Shown here: positions 3,168 to 64,000 of the stretch, in pieces
Numbering within the stretch: position 1 is the stretch's first letter
How the letters are laid out: each line of letters opens with the position of its first letter
IMG/VR virus record: IMGVR_UViG_3300014781_000001
DNA length: 64,000 bases
Reading direction: 5' to 3' (one strand)
DNA from: a virus
Position numbers and translations under genes: made by a program
Notes under the pieces: generated by a model
What the model saw: the letters and a program-made list of their open reading frames with translations, nothing else
Databases searched by the model: none
Told to the model about the DNA's origin: nothing

Positions 3168-3240
3168 GGTCCTGTGGCTTAGTGGTGAAAGCAAGATGCT
3201 CATAACATCGAGATCGTGGGTTCAAATCCCTCCGGGACCA
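3168..3240 (+). tRNA. tRNA-Met(CAT): tRNA-Met/Ile2 (anticodon CAT)
   Basis: Acceptor ggtcctg/cgggacc, anticodon loop cTCATAa, T-loop GGTTCAAATCC. There is one U-U mismatch in the T-stem. Confidence 0.6.
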
Positions 3241-3241
3241 C

Positions 3242-3312
3242 TGTCCAATGGTGTAGTGGTAGCACAACAGATTTTGGTTCTGTTAGCGGAGGTTCGAATC
3301 CTCCTTGGATAA
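3242..3312 (+). tRNA. tRNA-Gln(TTG): tRNA-Gln (anticodon TTG)
   Basis: Folded by hand as a full cloverleaf. Acceptor tgtccaa/ttggata with a G-U pair, D-stem gtgt/gcac, anticodon stem acaga/tctgt, loop ttTTGgt, T-arm ggagg-ttcgaat-cctcc. Confidence 0.85.
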
Positions 3313-3382
3313 CGGTACATATTTTGTGTAAAGTGTTAATTATCTAAGTGTTTGTGGTGTGTGAACATAGCAAACATTAAAT

Positions 3383-3454
3383 GGCCCATTAGTTTAACGG
3401 ATAAAACCCTTGAGTCCTAATCAAAAGTTGCCTGTTCGATTCAGGCATGGGCTA
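3383..3454 (+). tRNA. tRNA-Arg(CCT): tRNA-Arg (anticodon CCT)
   Basis: Acceptor ggcccat/atgggct, D-stem gttt/aaac, anticodon loop gtCCTaa, T-arm gcctg-ttcgatt-caggc. There is one C-A mismatch at the base of the anticodon stem. Confidence 0.7.
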
Positions 3455-3457
3455 CAT

Positions 3458-3529
3458 GGCTTGTTGGATGAGTGGTTTAGTCAGGGATCTGCAAAATCTC
3501 GTAGGGCGGTTCGATTCCGCCACAAGCCT
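3458..3529 (+). tRNA. tRNA-Cys(GCA): tRNA-Cys (anticodon GCA)
   Basis: Acceptor ggcttgt/acaagcc (perfect), anticodon stem gggat/atctc, loop ctGCAaa, T-arm ggcgg-ttcgatt-ccgcc. Confidence 0.8.
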
Positions 3530-3546
3530 CTAAAAAAAGTAAGACA

Positions 3547-5788: not shown

Positions 5789-6663
5789 TGAACGATTTGG
5801 ATATTAAAAACAAAAGAATACTGCTATTCGATTTTGACGGGACGCTTATAGAAACCGCTTCTGGGAATACGTTCGCTACAGACTTGACAGATATGAGGAT
5901 TAAGATGGATGTGGTGAATAAGGCTCTTGACCTCATGCAGGAGAACGGTGTTAAGGTATTTGCTATCGTAAGCAATCAAGGAGGAGTAGAAGCTGGGTTT
6001 GTTTCTGGAGCTGATATTGAAGCTAAGATAGAATACGTACTGAGGTCCGTACATGATCTGGCGGTAAAGAGAGGCATAAGAGGCGTCCTATATGAAAAAA
6101 GGTTGTGTTATTCAAATGACGAACAAAATCCGATGAGGAAGCCTAACACTGGCATGATTGATGATATTCTTATGAAGTGTAAAGACACTGTAATGCGTGG
6201 TATGAACTTTAGTCAACTTAAGGGATGTTCGTTGATGGTCGGGGACGCCAGTGGTCTGCCAGGGCAGTTCTCTGATTCGGATAAGGTATGCGCTGAGAAG
6301 GCCGGTATTGAATATATGGATGTTATCACGTTTGTTGGTAAAGACCTTGATTTGAATTATGTGTTGTCCAAAGAACATACAAGTGAAGGAATAGTTATTC
6401 TCAACAACGATTATATATATATCCTTGAAAATCCTTATGGAGTTGATCTTAATATAAAAATTGAATTACAGGATATTTATAGTGCGGAGTTTGATACTCC
6501 TCCTGTCTGTAAACCTCCTTTATTTACTTTGAAGGTCCGTATTAAAAAAGATCAGGATTATAGAGGATACAGCGATATTATAAGAATAGATAAAGGAGAC
6601 AATAATATTACATTCACAAGTTTATATTATGAAGGTAAAGAAAACGGCGATAGTTTATCATAA
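5785..6663 (+). CDS. HAD-superfamily phosphatase (polynucleotide 3'-phosphatase-like) with a C-terminal extra domain
   Basis: HAD motif I LLFDFDGTLIET, motif II VSNQGG, distal GDASG..D. Confidence 0.6.
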   Translation: MMNDLDIKNKRILLFDFDGTLIETASGNTFATDLTDMRIKMDVVNKALDLMQENGVKVFAIVSNQGGVEAGFVSGADIEAKIEYVLRSVHDLAVKRGIRGVLYEKRLCYSNDEQNPMRKPNTGMIDDILMKCKDTVMRGMNFSQLKGCSLMVGDASGLPGQFSDSDKVCAEKAGIEYMDVITFVGKDLDLNYVLSKEHTSEGIVILNNDYIYILENPYGVDLNIKIELQDIYSAEFDTPPVCKPPLFTLKVRIKKDQDYRGYSDIIRIDKGDNNITFTSLYYEGKENGDSLS

Positions 6664-9727: not shown

Positions 9728-9949
9728 GTGTTCGGTTCGATTCCGGAGCAACCTCTAAATTATAAACAATATAATAACATGGGAAAGAAAGCAATGATCA
9801 ACGCTTTAACTGAAGCGTTCAATAAATCTAAAAACAGTTGCGTAAAAATAACATTGCGTAACTATATCGAGACGGTTGAAGCACTAAGCGAAAGTGAGTA
9901 CAAAGAGGCGGAAGGTTTCTATATTGAAGCACTTAACCGCTGGGGTTAA
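9728..9949 (+). CDS. hypothetical small protein (probable start at the ATG at 9779)
   Basis: ORF track. The 5' part of the called ORF overlaps the conserved T-arm-like box. Confidence 0.4.
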   Translation: MFGSIPEQPLNYKQYNNMGKKAMINALTEAFNKSKNSCVKITLRNYIETVEALSESEYKEAEGFYIEALNRWG

Positions 9950-9971
9950 TCATAATTAAAGCATAAAGAAA

Positions 9972-33507: not shown

Positions 33508-33762
33508 ATGGAAGAAAAAGAGATAAAAGAAGCCATGATTGAAGCCCTGACGCACTTAGAGGGGTGTAAGTATTTCGTGGCTACGATAGTAAATGAAGAG
33601 GAAAGAAGATTTGATATGAGCCTAAGAATGTCACAGCATCAATTGGCGTTAATTATAAAAGGCATCTTATCTAATAATGAGATGATGATGATGGATGTTT
33701 TGCAGTGGTGTTCTGAAAGATTTAAAAACAGTATAGAGAAAGGAAAGAAATCAACTAATTAA
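33508..33762 (+). CDS. hypothetical protein
   Basis: ORF track. Confidence 0.45.
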   Translation: MEEKEIKEAMIEALTHLEGCKYFVATIVNEEERRFDMSLRMSQHQLALIIKGILSNNEMMMMDVLQWCSERFKNSIEKGKKSTN

Positions 33763-42117: not shown

Positions 42118-43818
42118 ATGACAACAATCATGTACGTGTCAGCTATCTTAGCTGTAGTGATTATTTTGACAATCATCGGAGTCTTATCAAGGTATCGTAG
42201 ATGTAAGCCTAATCAGGTCTTGGTCGTTTATGGTAAGACAGGTGGGGAAAAGAAGTCGGCGAAATTATATCATGGTGGAGCGGCATTTGTCTTACCTATT
42301 ATTCAAAGCTATGATGTTTTGTCAATGGAGCCTATGCAAATAGATTGCAAGCTTACCGGTGCTTTATCATCTCAGAATATTAGAGTAGATGTACCTACGA
42401 CTATTACAGTAGCTATCAGTACAAATCCAGAAATCATGCAAAATGCGGCAGAAAGACTTTTGGGGATGAATACCGAATCTACTGAAAATCTTATTACGGA
42501 CATCGTTTACGGTCAGATGCGTTTGATTATTGCTGAAATGACAATCGAAAAACTTAATTCTGACAGGGATGAGTTTTTGGATAAGGCGAGAAAGAACATT
42601 GATAACGAGCTTAACAAGTTAGGTCTTTACCTCCTGAACATCAACATCAGTGACATCAGAGACGAAGCCGGTTATATTATGAACCTTGGTAAGGAGGCTG
42701 AAAGTAGGGCTCTGAACGAAGCACAGGCTAATATCGAAGAACAGGAGAAGCTGGGGGCTATTAAGATTGCTGTACAGCAGAAGGAGAAAGAAACGGCTGT
42801 GGCTAATACCAAAAAAGAACAAGAGATTCAAATTGCTTGTACTGAAAAAGAAAAGGAAACAATAGTAGCTGAAACGAAGAAAGAAAAAGAAATAGCCTTG
42901 GCTTTAACCGATAAAGAGAAACAGATCGGCGTAGCTCAAGCAGATAGAGACAGGGCTGCGGTTATCGCAAAAACTTTAACCGACAAGGAATTGGCGATCG
43001 TAAGATCTAAGGCAGAACTTGAAGTAAATAAAGCCGAGGCTGAAAGGATGGAAGAAGTCGGAAAGAATAAGGCTGAAGCTGACAAGGAAGCAGCTATAGC
43101 AATACAAGACTCTGAAGCTCAGATTAAGAAGGCTGAGGCTGAGAAAAATGCGTCTATAGGATACAACAATGCACAGAAGGAGGTTGCTGTGTCAGTATCA
43201 GAACTACAGATCATCAAAGCTCAATCAGAGAAGAAGGCCGGAGAAGAAAAAGTTAAATCGGAAGCGGCTGTAAAAACAGCAAAAGAGCTTGCCGACAAAG
43301 AAGTGGAAGAAGCTAAGGCTAAGAAAGTTCAGGCTGCGCTTAAGGCTGAAAAGATTGTGCCGGCTGAAACCCAGAAGGAAGAGGCTATCTTGCAAGCTGA
43401 TGCCGAGGCCGAGAAGATCAAACGCCGGGCTGAGGCTGAGGCAGCAGCACATTTGGCAAAAGCTGAGGCAGAGGCAAAAGCTATTCAGATGAAGCTGGAG
43501 GCAGAAGCCGAAGGTAAGAAAAAGTCGTTAATGGCAGAAGCCGACGGATTTAAGGCTATGGTGGAAGCAGCAGAATCCAATCCTCAGATCGCCATCCAGT
43601 ACAAGATGGTTAATCAGTGGAAAGAAATTGCCGGAGAACAGGTTAAGGCATTTGAGCACATTAACCTCGGAAATATCACGGTATTTGACGGCGGTCAGAA
43701 CAGTACCGGTAATTTCCTTAACAATGTTGTCAAGACCGTCGCTCCGGCATTGGGAGTCATTGATCAGCTTCCGATTGCAGATACTTTAAAGAAGTTAAAG
43801 GGAGATGACAAAAAATAA
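42118..43818 (+). CDS. SPFH/band-7 protein, flotillin (YqiK)-like, with a long EA-repeat coiled coil
   Basis: N-terminal TM, then RYRRCKPNQVLVVYGK...AFVLPIIQSYDVLSMEPMQID, then many (K)AEAE repeats. Confidence 0.85.
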   Translation: MTTIMYVSAILAVVIILTIIGVLSRYRRCKPNQVLVVYGKTGGEKKSAKLYHGGAAFVLPIIQSYDVLSMEPMQIDCKLTGALSSQNIRVDVPTTITVAISTNPEIMQNAAERLLGMNTESTENLITDIVYGQMRLIIAEMTIEKLNSDRDEFLDKARKNIDNELNKLGLYLLNINISDIRDEAGYIMNLGKEAESRALNEAQANIEEQEKLGAIKIAVQQKEKETAVANTKKEQEIQIACTEKEKETIVAETKKEKEIALALTDKEKQIGVAQADRDRAAVIAKTLTDKELAIVRSKAELEVNKAEAERMEEVGKNKAEADKEAAIAIQDSEAQIKKAEAEKNASIGYNNAQKEVAVSVSELQIIKAQSEKKAGEEKVKSEAAVKTAKELADKEVEEAKAKKVQAALKAEKIVPAETQKEEAILQADAEAEKIKRRAEAEAAAHLAKAEAEAKAIQMKLEAEAEGKKKSLMAEADGFKAMVEAAESNPQIAIQYKMVNQWKEIAGEQVKAFEHINLGNITVFDGGQNSTGNFLNNVVKTVAPALGVIDQLPIADTLKKLKGDDKK

Positions 43819-43999
43819 ATACAATGGCCCAAGGTTACACTTGGGCCTAATTGAAGAAATAAAAGCAGCATTCATAGATTTCCTGCCGGCGGAAACAGTG
43901 CTTTTAAGTGCTTTACTAATTACGATATTTTTAACATGGATTTTGGACAAGATTTAGAACCAGAAGAACTGACCAATCATTATGATCAGTGTTATAACC

Positions 44000-44345
44000 C
44001 CAAATAGTATTAAACCAATATAATTCTATTATAAAAGTTTAATACATCTCTTTAAGAGATCGGGTTATTAGCCTAAGCCTTGAAACAAAGGCTACGTTAT
44101 TTAAGAATAGATAGTTACCTACGGATGTTTGCCCAAGTCTGTAGCTCTAAGGTAAGTGATTAAACAGTTCTGGTATTCAGGAACAGTGTTGCTTATTCAA
44201 AACCTTAAATAACATTGGCGATGGGTACTTACAGGAGAAATCCTGACTTATCCCTAACGGGATTTACATCTACCAAGGAGACCGAAAGGTCTCCGAGGGG
44301 ATGTATTAAAACATACGAATAGCTTTAAATATATTTAATAGAATA
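44000..44345 (+). ncRNA. candidate structured non-coding RNA related to the iscB upstream (omega-RNA) region
   Basis: 530-bp gap with no ORF. Positions 44199-44234 are 35/36 identical to the sequence 48 nt upstream of the iscB start (reverse complement of 63961-63996). Hairpins present: ccc-taac-ggg and ggagacc-GAAA-ggtctcc. Confidence 0.35.
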
Positions 44346-44351
44346 TGGGAT

Positions 44352-44699
44352 ATGGAATTGATTTTGAAACAGAAGAAGAGGAGGATGAAGAGTATGACTG
44401 ATGGGGAATTTGTATTGGATAATAAGAAAAAGGTTGTTGTAAGAAAAAGAATATCTTATTTAAACAAAGGTGATAAAGTATGGATCGTGTCTTCCGACGG
44501 GTATCTGCTACACACGGACGTAGTTAGAGCCGAACGCGGACGGTCTTATGTGGATATAGATGGTATCCTGTATTGGAAACGAGGATTAGATGGCAAGCAT
44601 CGTAATCGTAATAACTACATGCAGTTCGCCATGACGCCGGAGGACGGTAAGAAGTATGTCGTATATTACCTAGAAGGATTTAAAGACAATGACTTATGA
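44352..44699 (+). CDS. hypothetical basic protein
   Basis: ORF track. Confidence 0.5.
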   Translation: MELILKQKKRRMKSMTDGEFVLDNKKKVVVRKRISYLNKGDKVWIVSSDGYLLHTDVVRAERGRSYVDIDGILYWKRGLDGKHRNRNNYMQFAMTPEDGKKYVVYYLEGFKDNDL

Positions 44700-45715
44700 T
44701 GGTCCCGGAAACGCATTTGCTATATAAGGAGTTTAATGGTGTGAAACGTCTTGCCATATCTTATTCCCAGATAGATACGTTTCTTACCTGTCCAATGAAA
44801 TGGTATAAAACTTACGTAGAGGGCAAAAGGTCTACAGAAAAACAAGAAGCTACGTCTTATGGTACGGTTATCCATAAGACACTGGAATACTTCTTTAAGA
44901 ACGGAAGACAGCCTTCTGGTAAAGACCTTGGAGAAGCAATAAGTTACTATTCCTATCAAGAAGACATACCTTGGCAATCACCGGAAAATATGATGATAGC
45001 CATGAAACAATCTGGGGAGCTTCTTGCTTGGATTGTGGATCTGTTCAAAAAAGACGGCAATAGGTTTATGATAGCTGATAGTGATCTTAATCCCTGTGAG
45101 AAACTTATCAGACACGGCGCTATAATTGGAGTCGAAGAAGATTTTGTGCTGCCGTATCGTCTTCCTAAGCCTGTTGATATAAATGGTGACGTTCATACAC
45201 ATGTGTACATAGTAGGATCGGTAGATCTTCATCTGGCTATAAAGAGCAAGAACGTAGTTCACCATTATGTCATAGATTGGAAATCAGGTAATAAGGTTTT
45301 TGATTCTAAGAAGTTGGAAACAAATTTACAGCATCCTATATATTCATTTTACATCTATAGAAGATATGGTGGGGTTCTACCAGATATGAACATCTATTTC
45401 TTTACCAGGACCAGGCAGTACCAAAAGGTTAAGGTAGATGAGGAACGTAAAACAAAATCTATAGAGATGCTAAATGACACTTTGTCTAAAATGTATGATT
45501 TTGAAGATAATAGTGTAAAATCATTTCAAGCGTACATCCAGGGAGCAGAAGGAGCCAGGTATAGCAAGCGGCGTGCCACCCTAAGCCAGCCTGTTTCGCA
45601 AAACAAGCTACCCTGCCCGTCAGCACTGTGTTATTATTGTGACTTTGGATTACATAACAAAAACGAATGCCCTTTCTCTTCGGATTGGGATCCGTCTAAA
45701 AAGATAAAACGATGA
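44696..45715 (+). CDS. Cas4-like PD-(D/E)xK nuclease with a four-cysteine cluster
   Basis: HHYVIDWKSGN is the (I/V)D(W/Y)K(S/T)G motif. One N-terminal Cys (FLTCPMKWY) and three C-terminal Cys (CPSALCYYC) are arranged as in Cas4/AddB Fe-S nucleases. Confidence 0.5.
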   Translation: MMVPETHLLYKEFNGVKRLAISYSQIDTFLTCPMKWYKTYVEGKRSTEKQEATSYGTVIHKTLEYFFKNGRQPSGKDLGEAISYYSYQEDIPWQSPENMMIAMKQSGELLAWIVDLFKKDGNRFMIADSDLNPCEKLIRHGAIIGVEEDFVLPYRLPKPVDINGDVHTHVYIVGSVDLHLAIKSKNVVHHYVIDWKSGNKVFDSKKLETNLQHPIYSFYIYRRYGGVLPDMNIYFFTRTRQYQKVKVDEERKTKSIEMLNDTLSKMYDFEDNSVKSFQAYIQGAEGARYSKRRATLSQPVSQNKLPCPSALCYYCDFGLHNKNECPFSSDWDPSKKIKR

Positions 45716-57500: not shown

Positions 57501-60500
57501 CGGTACGTGCCGACTGTTCTGATTCTACGTCATTCCAAAACCGATCATTAAATGACAGGTGACCTCCCAACATAAGTGTCTTCAGCGCAGCTTCTCCTCC
57601 AGACTCGCTCTGAATCGTTCTTAATTTTTGCAAAAACGATTCTGATACGGCATTAGTGGCATTATTTGATTCTTTTCTCCAAACTTCATTTATGGCTTGT
57701 ATTTCTTTAGCCATCTTAAGTTGGTCGCCGGTTTTATCTACTCTCCTGGTTCCTACATATATGTATTCTGAAGCCGCCTCCTTACGTTGTTTACGAAGCA
57801 GTCCTTCTTCTTCGTAGTTACTACTCTTATAGTAAGCAACCTCATCAAAATTACCATTGCTATCAATAAAAGGTTGCCTCAATATCCGCTTCTGCCGAGA
57901 AAGAGCATTAAGGTATTCTTTGGTTGTTTGAGAAACCGGATGCCCTAATTCTTCTTCAGCCTTTTTGTATATGGATTCCATTCTTGTGGCATAACTTTCG
58001 CTAAATTCCAGTTCCGAATTTTCAGCATCCCATTTTTCCATCTGTTCCGTATAGATTTTTTCCTGTTCGATAGTAAAAATATCGGTATTAACCCTATCGG
58101 ACGACGGTTTAAATTTAGCGTTCTCAGTAACCGTATTTCCGTCCTTGTCAACTACTTCTCTTTTAAATACGTAATTACGGTTATTGTCAACCACATCATT
58201 GATTTCTTCTTCTGATATCTCTATGTTCATGGCGGTCGCAAACGCTCGCATCTGCGCCAGCTTCTTATTACGATCGTATTTAGCCATATCAAGGGCACTA
58301 CGAAGGTAATTAGAAGTTTTGCCGTCTACTTTCTGAAGCAGTTTTTCAAATTCAGATTTGTTAAAACCATGCTTTTTCGCATATGCCAGAAAATCGGATA
58401 TAGCGGGCTGGGCATTCACCATCGCATTGTAATTGTCTTTGGCAATCATAGCTCCAAGAGCGTTGTTGAACGGGCTGGAAGAATGCTCTAATATACCAAA
58501 CCACCTACTTATCCAAGAAACATCGTGTTGAACCTTATCAAAGAACTCTTTTACTCTCTTTACCTTATCTGCCGGCACATGAAGTTCGTTCATTAACTTG
58601 TCAAGCAACGTACTTTCATCAAGATCTTGTACTGATTTAATATCAGACTGAATACCGTTGATGTCGGCAATGACGGTATTGATCCTATTTGTATAATCCT
58701 GCTTTTCACGTTCATCAAATTCGGTACTTCTGTTACGGATATATCCTCGAAGATCGTTCATGATCGGAAGAACCTGATTGTTGATAATATCTACGTTCTT
58801 TCGATCATTGGTATTGAAGTGAAGCTTGCCGTCTTTGGTATCACCATGAAGGATGGTGTTCACCACATTGCTTAAGTATCTGACCTGAGCTTCGGCTGTG
58901 GAGATCATGCTGTTCATGGCAGCCGCCATCTCATTCTTGTCTATTTCGGTCTCTACCTTATTTATCTTATCTTCTATGGTCTTAAGCTGAGCAAGAGTCA
59001 TAGACGTAGTTACAGCCCTATCAGAGCTTATCTGACGTAAGTCTCTTAAGGTTTTTCTTAGTGATCTGATCTTAGACTCAAGAAACTTGTTCTTGTTCAT
59101 AGAAGAAAGAGAGTATAATGTAAAATCATTATCCTTTAACAGAGAGGTGTCAAATCCTTTATCTATGTCGGTAATAGCAAGATCGCGAATGTTTTTAATA
59201 ACATTATTCAAATCTTGTCTTTGGGTAGATAAAGCTGATTTAAGCCAGCTTACTATTCCAGAGAGAAGCTGCCGGACGCGCCCCAGGAAGGAGGTGGGCT
59301 CTACCGGCGCCTGTGCTGTGCCGGTCTGCATCTCCCTGGCGAGGATCTTTCCAAGAATTTCTCTCCTAACAGCATTATCAAGCTCAGCTCCTTCATATAC
59401 CTTACCGTATGTATTATAATACTGACCTGCATACTGGTTCCACTCTTCCGTACCTTCTACATCTTGCAGAACAGCCTCAACAGCATTCTGATCTCTGTAT
59501 GCCTCTACAAGGAAGTGGGCTGTTTCTTCTACTAAATCAGATAAAGTAGCATCTTCACCAACTGCTATTACGTTATTAGCAATATCCGCCAATGCCTTAG
59601 CAGAAGGTTCATGCCCGTATTTGGTTTGGTACTTCTCTATATAGTCGGTCATACCTATGACACTAACGCCCAGCGTTTTCAGTATCTCAACAATAGAATT
59701 TCGTTGATTACGTTCCTCTTGGCTATAATCCGATACGATCTTAGCTTTAGTATCAGCATAAAGATCGTTGTCTTCTAATATGAATGAAACTACAAGCGCA
59801 TCAAAATGATCGTACTTGGCGTCCAATTCATTGTATCTTCCTGACTTTAGATCGTTCTTTATCTGCTCTTTGCTAACCCTTTCCGTTCCTCCGGTGGCGA
59901 GCCTCATAGTTACCTTACTATTATCCAACGAGCTTATGGTTATCATACCTTGGTCGTTCATGGAAACATCGGAACCAAAATGATTACGGAGCTCAGTGTA
60001 GGATAATGCTGAATTGAAAAGTCTAATTTGTCCTGTATGTCCTTCTCCTGTAATATAATAGCTTCTTGTTTCCGGATCGAATATCTTGGATCCGGACAAA
60101 AGACCTTTCTTTATAAGGTAGTTAATTATACCGCCTTTTGTTGATAAAGAAGTAGAAGCGGAAGCGGTCATGACCGGTATAAAAGACTTGGAATTATTAA
60201 GAACATACTTTCCAGCTTTGTAAGTAATGTCTGCCACGCCATCCCAGGCAGATTCTTGAACGGTGCCGGATAAGAATCCTATTCTAATATCATTCCCGCC
60301 AGAGCGAAGAGCTTCTCCGTAATCTTCAAATAATTGATTACGATCGTTCATGAAAAACAAACGAGGCTCTCCGGTCTGATACGTTACACCCACAGGATTA
60401 GAATCTGTTTCTGGTAACTCTTCTGGACTAAATATCTTAAGACCGTCCTTTATAACCATATAATTAACACCCTTATCCTGTACCATAGATACGGGAGTGA

Positions 60501-62348: not shown

Positions 62349-62654
62349 TTAATACAAATCTTCTGAATACAACTGTTCTCTAATGGCATTCCTATCTACT
62401 ACCATTTCCTGATTATTGTTTCTAACAAGTTCAGACGCTTCCTCTCTTGTTAAAAACCGATTCTTGCTTGTCAAAAATCCTTGAACACTGCGGTTTTTAT
62501 GGGCTATACCGTATGCTGCAAGTTGAGATAGTATAGAGGGGTGTCTCAATCCACAGAACACGGTGCCGGATGGTATATTGGTGGGCTGATAGGGACGCTT
62601 CTTGCCGTCCTGCACCCAGATGGCCGCGCATATTACTATTTCTTTATTATACAT
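62349..62654 (-). CDS. hypothetical protein with weak nucleoside 2-deoxyribosyltransferase/Rcl-like features
   Basis: IVICAAIW...GTVFCGLRHPSI resembles the NDT/DNPH1 N-terminal pattern. This is speculative. Confidence 0.35.
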   Translation of the reverse strand: MYNKEIVICAAIWVQDGKKRPYQPTNIPSGTVFCGLRHPSILSQLAAYGIAHKNRSVQGFLTSKNRFLTREEASELVRNNNQEMVVDRNAIREQLYSEDLY

Positions 62655-62691
62655 GATACGTTTTTCTATTAAATTTATTAAATCCGTTCAT

Positions 62692-63912
62692 TTACTTTAA
62701 TATAATCGGATGCCTCTTCCCTCTAATGAGTTTAAACTTTTTGCGTGAAACATCTTTTGAATTTTCTCCGTTGAAATCCCTGATATTGAAACTCCCTGAT
62801 TTTCTCCTTCCATAAACAAAACATATTTTATTATTATACAACACTTTATCAAACAACCTAAAACCAAAAACCTCAAAAGGAGCTTGATTGTTTTTCTTCT
62901 TCCCCCCTTTTAAAATTTTCATTTTATGTATTTGTCTATTATGTCTACGAATTAAACGTTTTAAATATTGACGTTCGATTCGTTTCGCATTAATATTCTT
63001 AGAAATGACAAACGCGTCGGATGTATGGGATTTTTCAATCCCATATTTAATCCGATTATGTTTCGTAATGTAACCAAACGTCATAAAAACTCTGTCGTAT
63101 CTGGATTTTAACTCTTCATACAACCTCCATTTCATAATTCCCATTACGGCTGCGTCGCGAAGCGACTTGCCTCTTCTGATCTTTAAATCTATATTACCTT
63201 TATGGTATTCTTTGTGACATGTTTCACATAAAGTTATAAGATTAGAAGGGGAATCCCCTCCGGTTTTTCGAGACTCAATATGATGAACATTCAGTATAGA
63301 ATCTTTTGACTTGCCTTTACAATACTGGCATTTATGTCCATCTCTTGCTAAAACATACTCCCTTGTGTTCCAAAACTCAAGTTGATCACCTTCCTGGTAT
63401 TCTTTACCCGATATATTAGGATTCTTAATCTTTTGAGTATCGAATTGAGCTACTTCAATAACAATACGAAATATTGGTAGTATAGAGCATACATTATCAA
63501 TAACACGAATATGGGCGTCTATTTTGTACTTCACCGAAGGTGCTGTCCATCCTGGACGCTTGCTTTTTATTCTATTATTAAAACGAGGTTTTCTATATCT
63601 TAACCTGTTCCGTCTTGCTCTTCGTAGCTCCCTTCTGGTAGACAAAAGATCTACGATATCATTTCTAAGGATCACTTCACTACTGTAAAGTTCTTTGCTT
63701 TTCGTTGTAGCTGATAGACCAACATGCTTAGTTCCAGCATCAACGCCTAAAACAATTTCCTGTTTGTAATCAGATGTGACGTACGTTAATTTGATGGTAA
63801 ACGGACATAAGTTGACAACAACCGCCTTTTTGTCTTTAAGCAGTCGTCTTACCTTACCATGCCTTGTTGTGGGCATCAAAGGTTTACCATTTATGTCTTG
63901 TACGTACACCAT
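62692..63912 (-). CDS. iscB: IscB (OMEGA) RNA-guided RuvC-HNH nuclease
   Basis: N-terminal PLMP motif (NGKPLMPTT). RuvC-I GVDAGTKHVGLSA. Arg-rich bridge helix RRELRRARRNRLRYRKPRF. HNH CQYC...HHIESRKTGGDSPSNLITLCETCHKEYH. RuvC-III-like HTSDAFV. 406 aa in total. Confidence 0.85.
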   Translation of the reverse strand: MVYVQDINGKPLMPTTRHGKVRRLLKDKKAVVVNLCPFTIKLTYVTSDYKQEIVLGVDAGTKHVGLSATTKSKELYSSEVILRNDIVDLLSTRRELRRARRNRLRYRKPRFNNRIKSKRPGWTAPSVKYKIDAHIRVIDNVCSILPIFRIVIEVAQFDTQKIKNPNISGKEYQEGDQLEFWNTREYVLARDGHKCQYCKGKSKDSILNVHHIESRKTGGDSPSNLITLCETCHKEYHKGNIDLKIRRGKSLRDAAVMGIMKWRLYEELKSRYDRVFMTFGYITKHNRIKYGIEKSHTSDAFVISKNINAKRIERQYLKRLIRRHNRQIHKMKILKGGKKKNNQAPFEVFGFRLFDKVLYNNKICFVYGRRKSGSFNIRDFNGENSKDVSRKKFKLIRGKRHPIILK

Positions 63913-64000
63913 ATCTACAAACGTTTTTAATGTTTATTCAACATAAGTCAGAGTAAAACTCTGTTAGTACCCATCGCCAATGTTATTTAAGGTTTTTAGT
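63913..64000 (-). ncRNA. 3' part of the putative IscB omega-RNA (truncated by the window end)
   Basis: In IscB loci the omega-RNA lies directly upstream of and abuts the iscB start. The conserved 36-mer also found at 44.2 kb lies 48 nt upstream of the ATG. Confidence 0.4.

Follow-up and report, generated by a model that had tools for sequence, protein, structure and literature searches.

What does an RNA-guided nuclease gene do in a phage genome where no transposase gene accompanies it? About 98% of iscB genes have no transposase nearby, and the natural role of the nuclease is only partly settled. The question is raised here by a 64000-nt stretch of viral DNA (IMG/VR record IMGVR_UViG_3300014781_000001; hereafter, the window), which encodes an IscB of 406 amino acids (aa), one of the small RNA-guided nucleases from whose kind Cas9 descends, close to its end, at positions 62692–63912 on the minus strand. 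The original prediction, made from the letters of the window, had taken this gene for an uncommon phage-borne copy that was either domesticated or recently inserted. We found that it belongs to an element in which iscB stands between an omega-RNA scaffold and a 37-nt tail, the guide of each omega-RNA being supplied by the phage sequence that flanks the element immediately upstream. Comparison of many copies in related phages led us to read it, with a probability of roughly 0.6, as a non-autonomous IS200/IS605-type OMEGA element that would spread between co-infecting phages by RNA-guided homing.

The iscB gene and its omega-RNA

The open reading frame encodes a genuine, intact IscB. In Pfam, the RRXRR family matched residues 2–175 (1.5e-59), spanning the PLMP motif, RuvC-I and the Arg-rich helix, and the HNH domain matched residues 195–238 (4.6e-11) as an insertion in RuvC. 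The NCBIfam equivalog guided_IscB ('RNA-guided endonuclease IscB') scored 357.5 bits against a cutoff of 175, and solved IscB structures, including OgeuIscB (7utn and 7xht), matched the protein at 1e-42 to 1e-44. Beginning with MVYVQDINGKPLMP, the protein carries PLMP at residues 11–14, RuvC-I (GVDAG, with D58), the Arg-rich helix at 93–103, RuvC-II (IEVAQF, with E153), HNH at 195–238 (H210/H211, N224 and Cys pairs) and RuvC-III (KSHTSDAF, with H296 and D299), which is the domain order originally proposed. In an alignment of 16 IscBs with 38–84% identity, D58, E153, H210/H211, H296 and D299 were invariant, the split RuvC residues D58, E153, H296 and D299 aligned with the OgeuIscB motifs, and the bridge helix following RuvC-I, RRELRRARRNRLRYRKPRF at residues 93–111, was conserved. 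The C-terminal block (about residues 344–406) is conserved within the family and gave no alignment to solved IscBs by sequence or profile. When a profile of 16 diverged IscBs was compared with PDB sequences, the alignment ended at about residue 395 of the 495 in OgeuIscB, and an AlphaFold2 model based on an alignment of 13 close relatives had a mean predicted local distance difference test score (pLDDT) of 38 and was left uninterpreted. Between the window iscB and ten intact sibling copies, the ratio of nonsynonymous to synonymous substitution rates was 0.05–0.16, which points to strong purifying selection and a function that is kept.

The omega-RNA was followed beyond the end of the window in other public contigs, at least 22 of which encode exactly the same protein and reach up to 157 kb. 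Seven of these (L001–L007) were used for this purpose, and L007, being identical to the window base for base across their 5.5-kb overlap, continues it. A full-length HEARO RNA (Rfam RF02033) was detected in L001 at 9741–9950 with 107.7 bits against a gathering score of 83, on the same strand as iscB and stopping 50 nt 5' of its ATG. Window position 64000 corresponds to L001 position 9913, which places no more than the final 58 nt of the scaffold inside the window. The in-window part of this omega-RNA (63913–64000, minus strand) consists of these 58 nt (63943–64000), which are 100% identical to scaffold positions 198–255, and a 30-nt linker to the iscB ATG, whereas the remaining scaffold and guide #1, TGACGTAAATATATTG, lie beyond 64000. 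The Rfam model ends at 63963 and is followed by a covarying terminal hairpin (CAGAG..CTCTG). A comparison of 37 distinct sibling scaffolds showed that changes on both sides preserve 10 of the 38 predicted pairs, and the outermost stem, P1, was compensatory between copies (ATATCCG/CGGATAT, ATAACCC/GGGTTAT and AATAATC/GATTATT), as would be expected of a real IscB-linked omega-RNA under structural selection. Both features on which the original prediction hinged, a RuvC domain in the protein and a structured RNA upstream that runs off the window at 64000, were thus found.

On the other side of the gene, a 37-nt tail (62655–62691, minus strand; ATGAACGGATTTAATAAATTTAATAGAAAAACGTATC) ends at the ATG (62652–62654, minus strand) of a downstream 101-aa gene (62349–62654), in agreement with the 37-nt gap first noted; this ATG forms the junction of the element on the side of the target-adjacent motif (TAM). 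The closest deposited relative of the phage, csAssE-Sib (OR575929, 151 kb, human gut), encodes no IscB and has in the corresponding place an intact 251-aa gene, with a WDGH and a DUF2829-like C-terminal domain, followed by a 91-aa gene. Homology to csAssE-Sib continues through ...GACGTAAATATATTGAT and breaks at the first scaffold base, and guide #1 is therefore a piece of the coding sequence of the WDGH/DUF2829-like gene. The interrupted gene lies just past window position 64000, at L001 9560–9720 on the minus strand, and its C-terminal domain is severed and decayed, having acquired an in-frame TAA and lost 12 nt. The DUF2829-like C-terminus belongs to what we take to be the family of the anti-Thoeris protein Tad2, so that the element, by cutting off this domain, may cost the phage a possible anti-defence function. 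Sibling copies at this locus share one fixed 3' junction, but their 5' junctions are many, the farthest lying more than 1 kb upstream. The placement of iscB at the head of a strand of virion genes, as first described, turned out to be an artefact of the window edge, since co-oriented genes continue upstream for at least 10 kb.

A second element, conserved ends and unoccupied sites

A whole-window Rfam scan revealed a second element that had gone unmentioned, a 358-bp orphan omega-RNA mini-element without iscB at 43994–44351 on the plus strand. It comprises a full-length HEARO scaffold (43994–44232, plus strand; 112.9 bits against the gathering score of 83) and a structured 3' part (44233–44351; z of −4 to −5 for the fold) that ends in the common ...TTTAATAGAA... 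tail motif, and its TAM-side junction is the ATG (44352–44354, plus strand) of a 115-aa gene. The orphan and IscB-linked scaffolds are near-identical in the core and 89% identical overall across 43999–44234, with a compensatory P1 stem. The 16 nt upstream of the two scaffolds differ, and those of the orphan, guide #2 (CATTATGATCAGTGTT; 43978–43993, plus strand), are flanking DNA directly 5' of the scaffold. Where csAssE-Sib reads ...CATTATGATCAGTGTT directly followed by ATGGAATTG..., the window has positions 43994–44351 between the two. Relative to csAssE-Sib, the orphan is thus a clean insertion of 358 bp between ...CAGTGTT and ATGGAATTG, without target duplication, and the insertion boundary is the first base of the Rfam model. 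Directly upstream of the orphan (42118–43818, plus strand) lies a gene for a 566-aa SPFH/flotillin-family protein (Band_7, 9e-26; Flot, 1e-9), which is unusual phage cargo.

The family to which these elements belong is very common in the crAss-like clade of the window phage. In IMG/VR, 345 stretches with relatives of the window IscB at 83–99% identity were found on viral contigs of 80–160 kb, and four contigs hold two IscB copies. In a large protein collection, one cluster was present on 547 contigs and carries the name 'MAG: RRXRR protein [Bacteriophage sp.]' in the nr database, and 36 phage genomes on deposit encode an IscB homologue. Goltsman et al. 2022 (PMC9755519) assigned more than 16% of IscB/HEARO-encoding fragments to viruses or prophages. 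The gene is phage-borne, as expected, and the view that it is uncommon is not supported. Bacterial genomes, taken as one per species, contained only 23 relatives, the best of which were from 'Vibrio olivae' (88% identity, the sole close one) and a Phocaeicola metagenome-assembled genome (70%). Vibrio olivae was rejected as a bacterial host; its 20-kb contig (L089; NZ_JBHMEP010000019.1, strain CECT 8064) matches gut-phage contigs at 97% identity across 7.2 kb and probably entered the Vibrio assembly by contamination or mis-binning.

The carrier is a ~150-kb crAss-like human-gut phage, the clade being recognized as crAss-like by the csAssE-Sib annotation of ring and muzzle proteins and a diversity-generating retroelement (DGR). 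In 3.1 Mb of assembled sequence from this clade, we counted 93 IscB-linked scaffolds, 14 orphans and 46 distinct 16-nt guides. A scaffold was located immediately upstream of every phage IscB copy examined, and premature stops made pseudogenes of 5 of 79 IscB copies. Some siblings have longer open reading frames (L085 988–2628, 546 aa; P0001, 520 aa, 94% identity), which may have arisen by read-through into the downstream gene where the tail was lost. Elsewhere in these genomes, the DGR of csAssE-Sib, with its variable repeat, template repeat, initiation of mutagenic homing (VR/TR/IMH) site and reverse transcriptase, is located beside a putative tail-fibre gene outside the region covered by the window (L345 45751–47816), and four tRNA genes (Met-CAT, Gln-TTG, Arg-CCT and Cys-GCA) in the window at 3168–3530 on the plus strand are also present in csAssE-Sib.

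The ends of the element were highly regular across the clade. A conserved tail follows the iscB stop codon, with a length of 37 nt in the sub-family of the window and 23 nt in a sub-family with 408-aa proteins; among 94 copies, 42 had a tail of exactly 37 nt and 28 had one of 23 nt. In all 94 copies, the 3' end of the element adjoined an ATG start codon, belonging to at least 15 different genes, and the same 37-nt tail preceded five different downstream genes. Chance had been considered for a 20-nt likeness between the 3' ends of the two window elements (E value of 0.026) and was dropped on this multi-site comparison, which shows a conserved tail.

We then sought each guide elsewhere in the data at places where no scaffold comes next. 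Empty alleles were recovered for 20 guides, among which 13 had an ATG directly at the junction and 2 had an ATG 4 nt further on, offsets that stem from short-repeat differences, while the remaining 5 junctions were artefacts of automatic stem calls. Junctions at L009 ~2690–2710 and L010 ~2700–2716 are without a 4-nt unit (CTGT or TTGT) that precedes the ATG in the empty alleles, a difference that could have arisen by slippage of the repeat unit or as a scar of repair close to where IscB is predicted to cut. Since empty alleles read the guide match and then ATG, the TAM is predicted to be of the ATG type, and since the scaffold begins with ATA, a filled allele would be without it. The family context agrees with such a motif, as the published TAM of Geobacillus stearothermophilus GstIscB, for which homing has been reported, is ATGAA in the iscB orientation (Meers et al. 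2023, PMC10055086) and that of DtIsrB is NTGA (PMC9581776).

Apart from sites matching guides of siblings, no guide match followed by ATG, which would be a self-target, was found in the window. The sibling-guide sites comprise an unoccupied target of an L029-type IscB at 45696–45714 on the plus strand, with a perfect 16-nt match (CTAAAAAGATAAAACG) and ATG directly after it, and two candidate unoccupied targets with one mismatch each, at 33576–33595 (plus strand; L055-type guide, then A-ATG) and at 6612–6631 (plus strand; L044-type guide, then ATG). The window phage is thereby a potential recipient of sibling elements as well as a carrier. We further scanned IMG/VR with the 18-mers made of each window guide and AT. 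Guide #2 had at least 120 matches, and among those listed 107 were empty alleles with ATG next and 12 were filled, and guide #1 had 113, with 107 empty and 2 filled among the matches listed, although most of these contigs came from one dataset (3300045988) and the counts are therefore not independent frequencies. Putatively susceptible alleles are shown by these matches to be common among relatives. From the readable guides, the ATG TAM and the matching empty alleles, RNA-guided, TAM-dependent cleavage of double-stranded DNA is predicted for the window IscB.

The element is mobile, as was observed in the 46 guides, the contigs with two copies and the filled alleles on diverse backgrounds. The suggestion that iscB had been domesticated is disfavoured by its polymorphic presence, its occurrence at dozens of sites, guides that equal the flanks and several pseudogenes.

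Spread of the element and competing explanations

For spread by homing, the steps would be as follows. Read-through from the co-oriented upstream gene would yield a guide–scaffold RNA, and IscB with either of the two RNAs would recognize the same 16 nt where ATG, and not the ATA of the scaffold, comes next, that is, the unoccupied allele of a co-infecting sibling phage. By analogy to the mechanism of Meers et al. 2023, the HNH and RuvC sites would cut this empty allele, and recombinational repair from the element-bearing genome would either copy the element in or remove the competitor. New sites would probably be seeded by a Y1 TnpA transposase acting in trans, supplied by a rare phage-borne copy or by the host. 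Recombination between copies at neighbouring ATGs might generate the nested upstream deletions of the iscB locus. The adjacency to start codons is most simply explained by a 3-nt ATG TAM and by selection, in a compact genome, against insertions that disrupt genes; the AT-rich tail would then replace the displaced leader.

Several observations weigh against this reading. The case for cleavage, RNA expression and homing is comparative throughout, and the C-terminal block, unaligned to solved IscBs, is no more than a putative TAM-interacting domain. Empty alleles outnumber filled ones, although an efficient drive should have raised the frequency of the latter, and the allele counts carry the dependence on one dataset mentioned above. 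Orphan copies were 89–100% identical to each other, with a mean of 95.6%, and their right flank was 95.3% identical, a divergence so similar that a recent sweep is not shown. Filled orphan alleles occurred on flanks as diverse as those of empty ones, each with an empty counterpart of 96–99% identity; given such backgrounds and about equal divergence, gain by homing and precise loss are indistinguishable. At the iscB locus, about 385 bp of csAssE-Sib (the rest of the C-terminal domain and the 91-aa gene) are replaced by the element, which is not a clean insertion, and the 94 copies included no simple-insertion intermediate for the internal junctions. Of the element ends, the guide side is hairpin-rich as part of the omega-RNA, and the 3' part of the orphan folds significantly, as given above; the 3' end of the full-length element had no significant hairpin (z of −0.3 against shuffles), unlike the canonical left end of IS200/IS605. 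Scans for sigma-70 promoters and terminators around both elements were uninformative, the consensus being probably wrong for this host.

The strongest competing explanation, which we nevertheless hold to be unlikely, is an ordinary transposon only, spread mainly by TnpA in trans from the host or a rare phage IS605, with IscB doing no more than restoring what excision has removed within a single replicating phage population (restorative homing) and playing no part between different phages. Precise insertions without target-site duplication beside a fixed short motif are indeed the signature of TnpA and, like the many sites with conserved ends, traits of IS200/IS605 elements. We searched for Y1 TnpA with a three-seed hidden Markov model, the ISHp608 seed of which was confirmed against PDB 2a6m (345.6 bits), and obtained a single hit in the 3.1 Mb of the clade. 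This canonical 132-aa protein with a HUH motif (L138 4098–4496, minus strand) forms a divergent pair with a TnpB gene. The same contig also holds a degenerate IscB copy (L080). Genes for TnpB, the other OMEGA nuclease, which like this pair would fit a transposon, were found in 61 of 348 clade loci, inside the structural-gene module; csAssE-Sib has two (58986–60125 and 64190–65413, equivalent to L346 8986–10125 and 14190–15413) and the window none. No Y1 TnpA was detected by this model in the window or 10 kb either side of the exact protein, extending the first impression that no tnpA was visible, nor in the 3 kb that flank each of 79 sibling copies on both sides, nor anywhere in the csAssE-Sib genome. 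One transposase gene in 3.1 Mb and none within 3–10 kb of about 100 IscB copies speak against transposition as the whole account, as does the failure to find a left-end-type hairpin at the element 3' end. In addition, the orphan insertion recurs at an identical junction on diverged backgrounds, for which site-specific homing is simpler than repeated independent transposition. The window element is itself non-autonomous, in agreement with the majority of iscB loci, as tnpA is nearby at only ~1.5% of iscB genes and ~98.5% are non-autonomous (PMC10055086).

It is improbable, in our judgement, that the element is foremost a co-opted phage weapon, in which IscB with several guides, including that of the trans-acting orphan, cuts sibling phages in co-infection and copying is incidental. 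The strong purifying selection on iscB and the presence of one nuclease for two guides in the same genome, both matching most sibling genomes, would fit such a role, and an exclusion framework has been proposed for homing endonucleases (PMC13565253). However, the guides are always the flank of the element itself, with no selected or acquired guides seen, 5 of the 79 copies are pseudogenes, and presence is patchy rather than fixed. A weapon of this kind is, moreover, not cleanly separable from homing.

A bolder proposal, and a long shot, is a gene drive or exclusion system between co-infecting phages that is RNA-guided and needs no transposase. In it, one nuclease would serve several guides including those of trans-acting orphans, new guides would arise by recombination or deletion fusing the scaffold to upstream ATG-adjacent sequence, and start codons, through the ATG TAM, would become a safe harbour where the element provides the leader that it displaces. 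If true, such a multi-guide system would stand, as a natural intermediate, midway from selfish OMEGA elements to CRISPR-like targeting. Finally, a free-standing, protein-guided HNH homing endonuclease without RNA guide, the 'HNH endonuclease' as which the deposited phage homologues are mostly annotated, can be dismissed, as it is contradicted by the RuvC motifs, the PLMP/RRXRR domain, the IscB equivalog score and the covarying HEARO RNA upstream of every copy.

RNA-guided homing of a non-autonomous element hence remains our preferred reading, and the clade offers a dense natural data set in which to pursue it, with hundreds of near-identical genomes that carry or lack the element at defined sites, guides that can be read, a 3-nt TAM that can be inferred and empty alleles that match the guides. 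Homing between co-infecting phages, which a 2026 OMEGA review names as a category, 'non-restorative homing' (PMC13565253), would be directly testable here. The compact 406-aa IscB, with its short ATG-type TAM and known scaffold, may also interest genome-editing groups.

Relation to known systems

Viral IscB has already been published, and the window element adds to a known kind rather than representing a new kind of system. HEARO RNA has been listed in Staphylococcus phages. Like the systems of Goltsman et al. 2022 (PMC9755519), the phage elements combine IscB and a HEARO RNA on viral contigs where TnpA is rare; in the sections of that paper covered here, the insertion sites, guides, empty alleles and orphan RNAs of a phage clade are not described. 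We found no paper describing the expansion of IscB in crAss-like phages, its placement at start codons or orphan guides, within a partial coverage of journals.

At the protein level, the window IscB resembles OgeuIscB and related structures (7utn, 7xht and 11hr) in domain order and catalytic residues, with a similarity of ~1e-43 by sequence and 2e-70 by profile, and both it and OgeuIscB come from human gut metagenomes. It differs in its length of 406 aa against 495, with ~30 residues fewer after the Arg-rich helix, and in the C-terminal domain, which is unaligned. At the RNA level, both copies in the window phage match the full-length RF02033 model above the gathering score, but in the phage scaffolds the variable insert within P1 is larger, and a covarying 3' hairpin absent from the model is added.

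The organization is that of ISGst-type elements (PMC10055086), where the scaffold is one end, the guide lies outside and the TAM is at the other end, most copies are without tnpA, upstream genes are co-oriented, protein-less mini-elements occur and homing into the empty site has been proposed. In contrast to these, the phage elements are found in a lytic-type phage genome and not in a bacterial chromosome, adjoin start codons with a leader-like tail and no detectable TAM-side hairpin, and have their susceptible alleles in other phage genomes and not on a sister chromosome. The phage elements would also work like the free-standing homing endonucleases of T-even phages (SegB–G and Mob), whose genes are located between conserved phage genes and whose products cut the nuclease-free allele of a co-infecting relative, with neighbouring DNA co-converted or lost. 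Unlike in SegB–G and Mob, the target of the phage IscB would be read by an RNA guide and a 3-nt motif and not by the protein, and self and non-self would differ by the insertion of the element.

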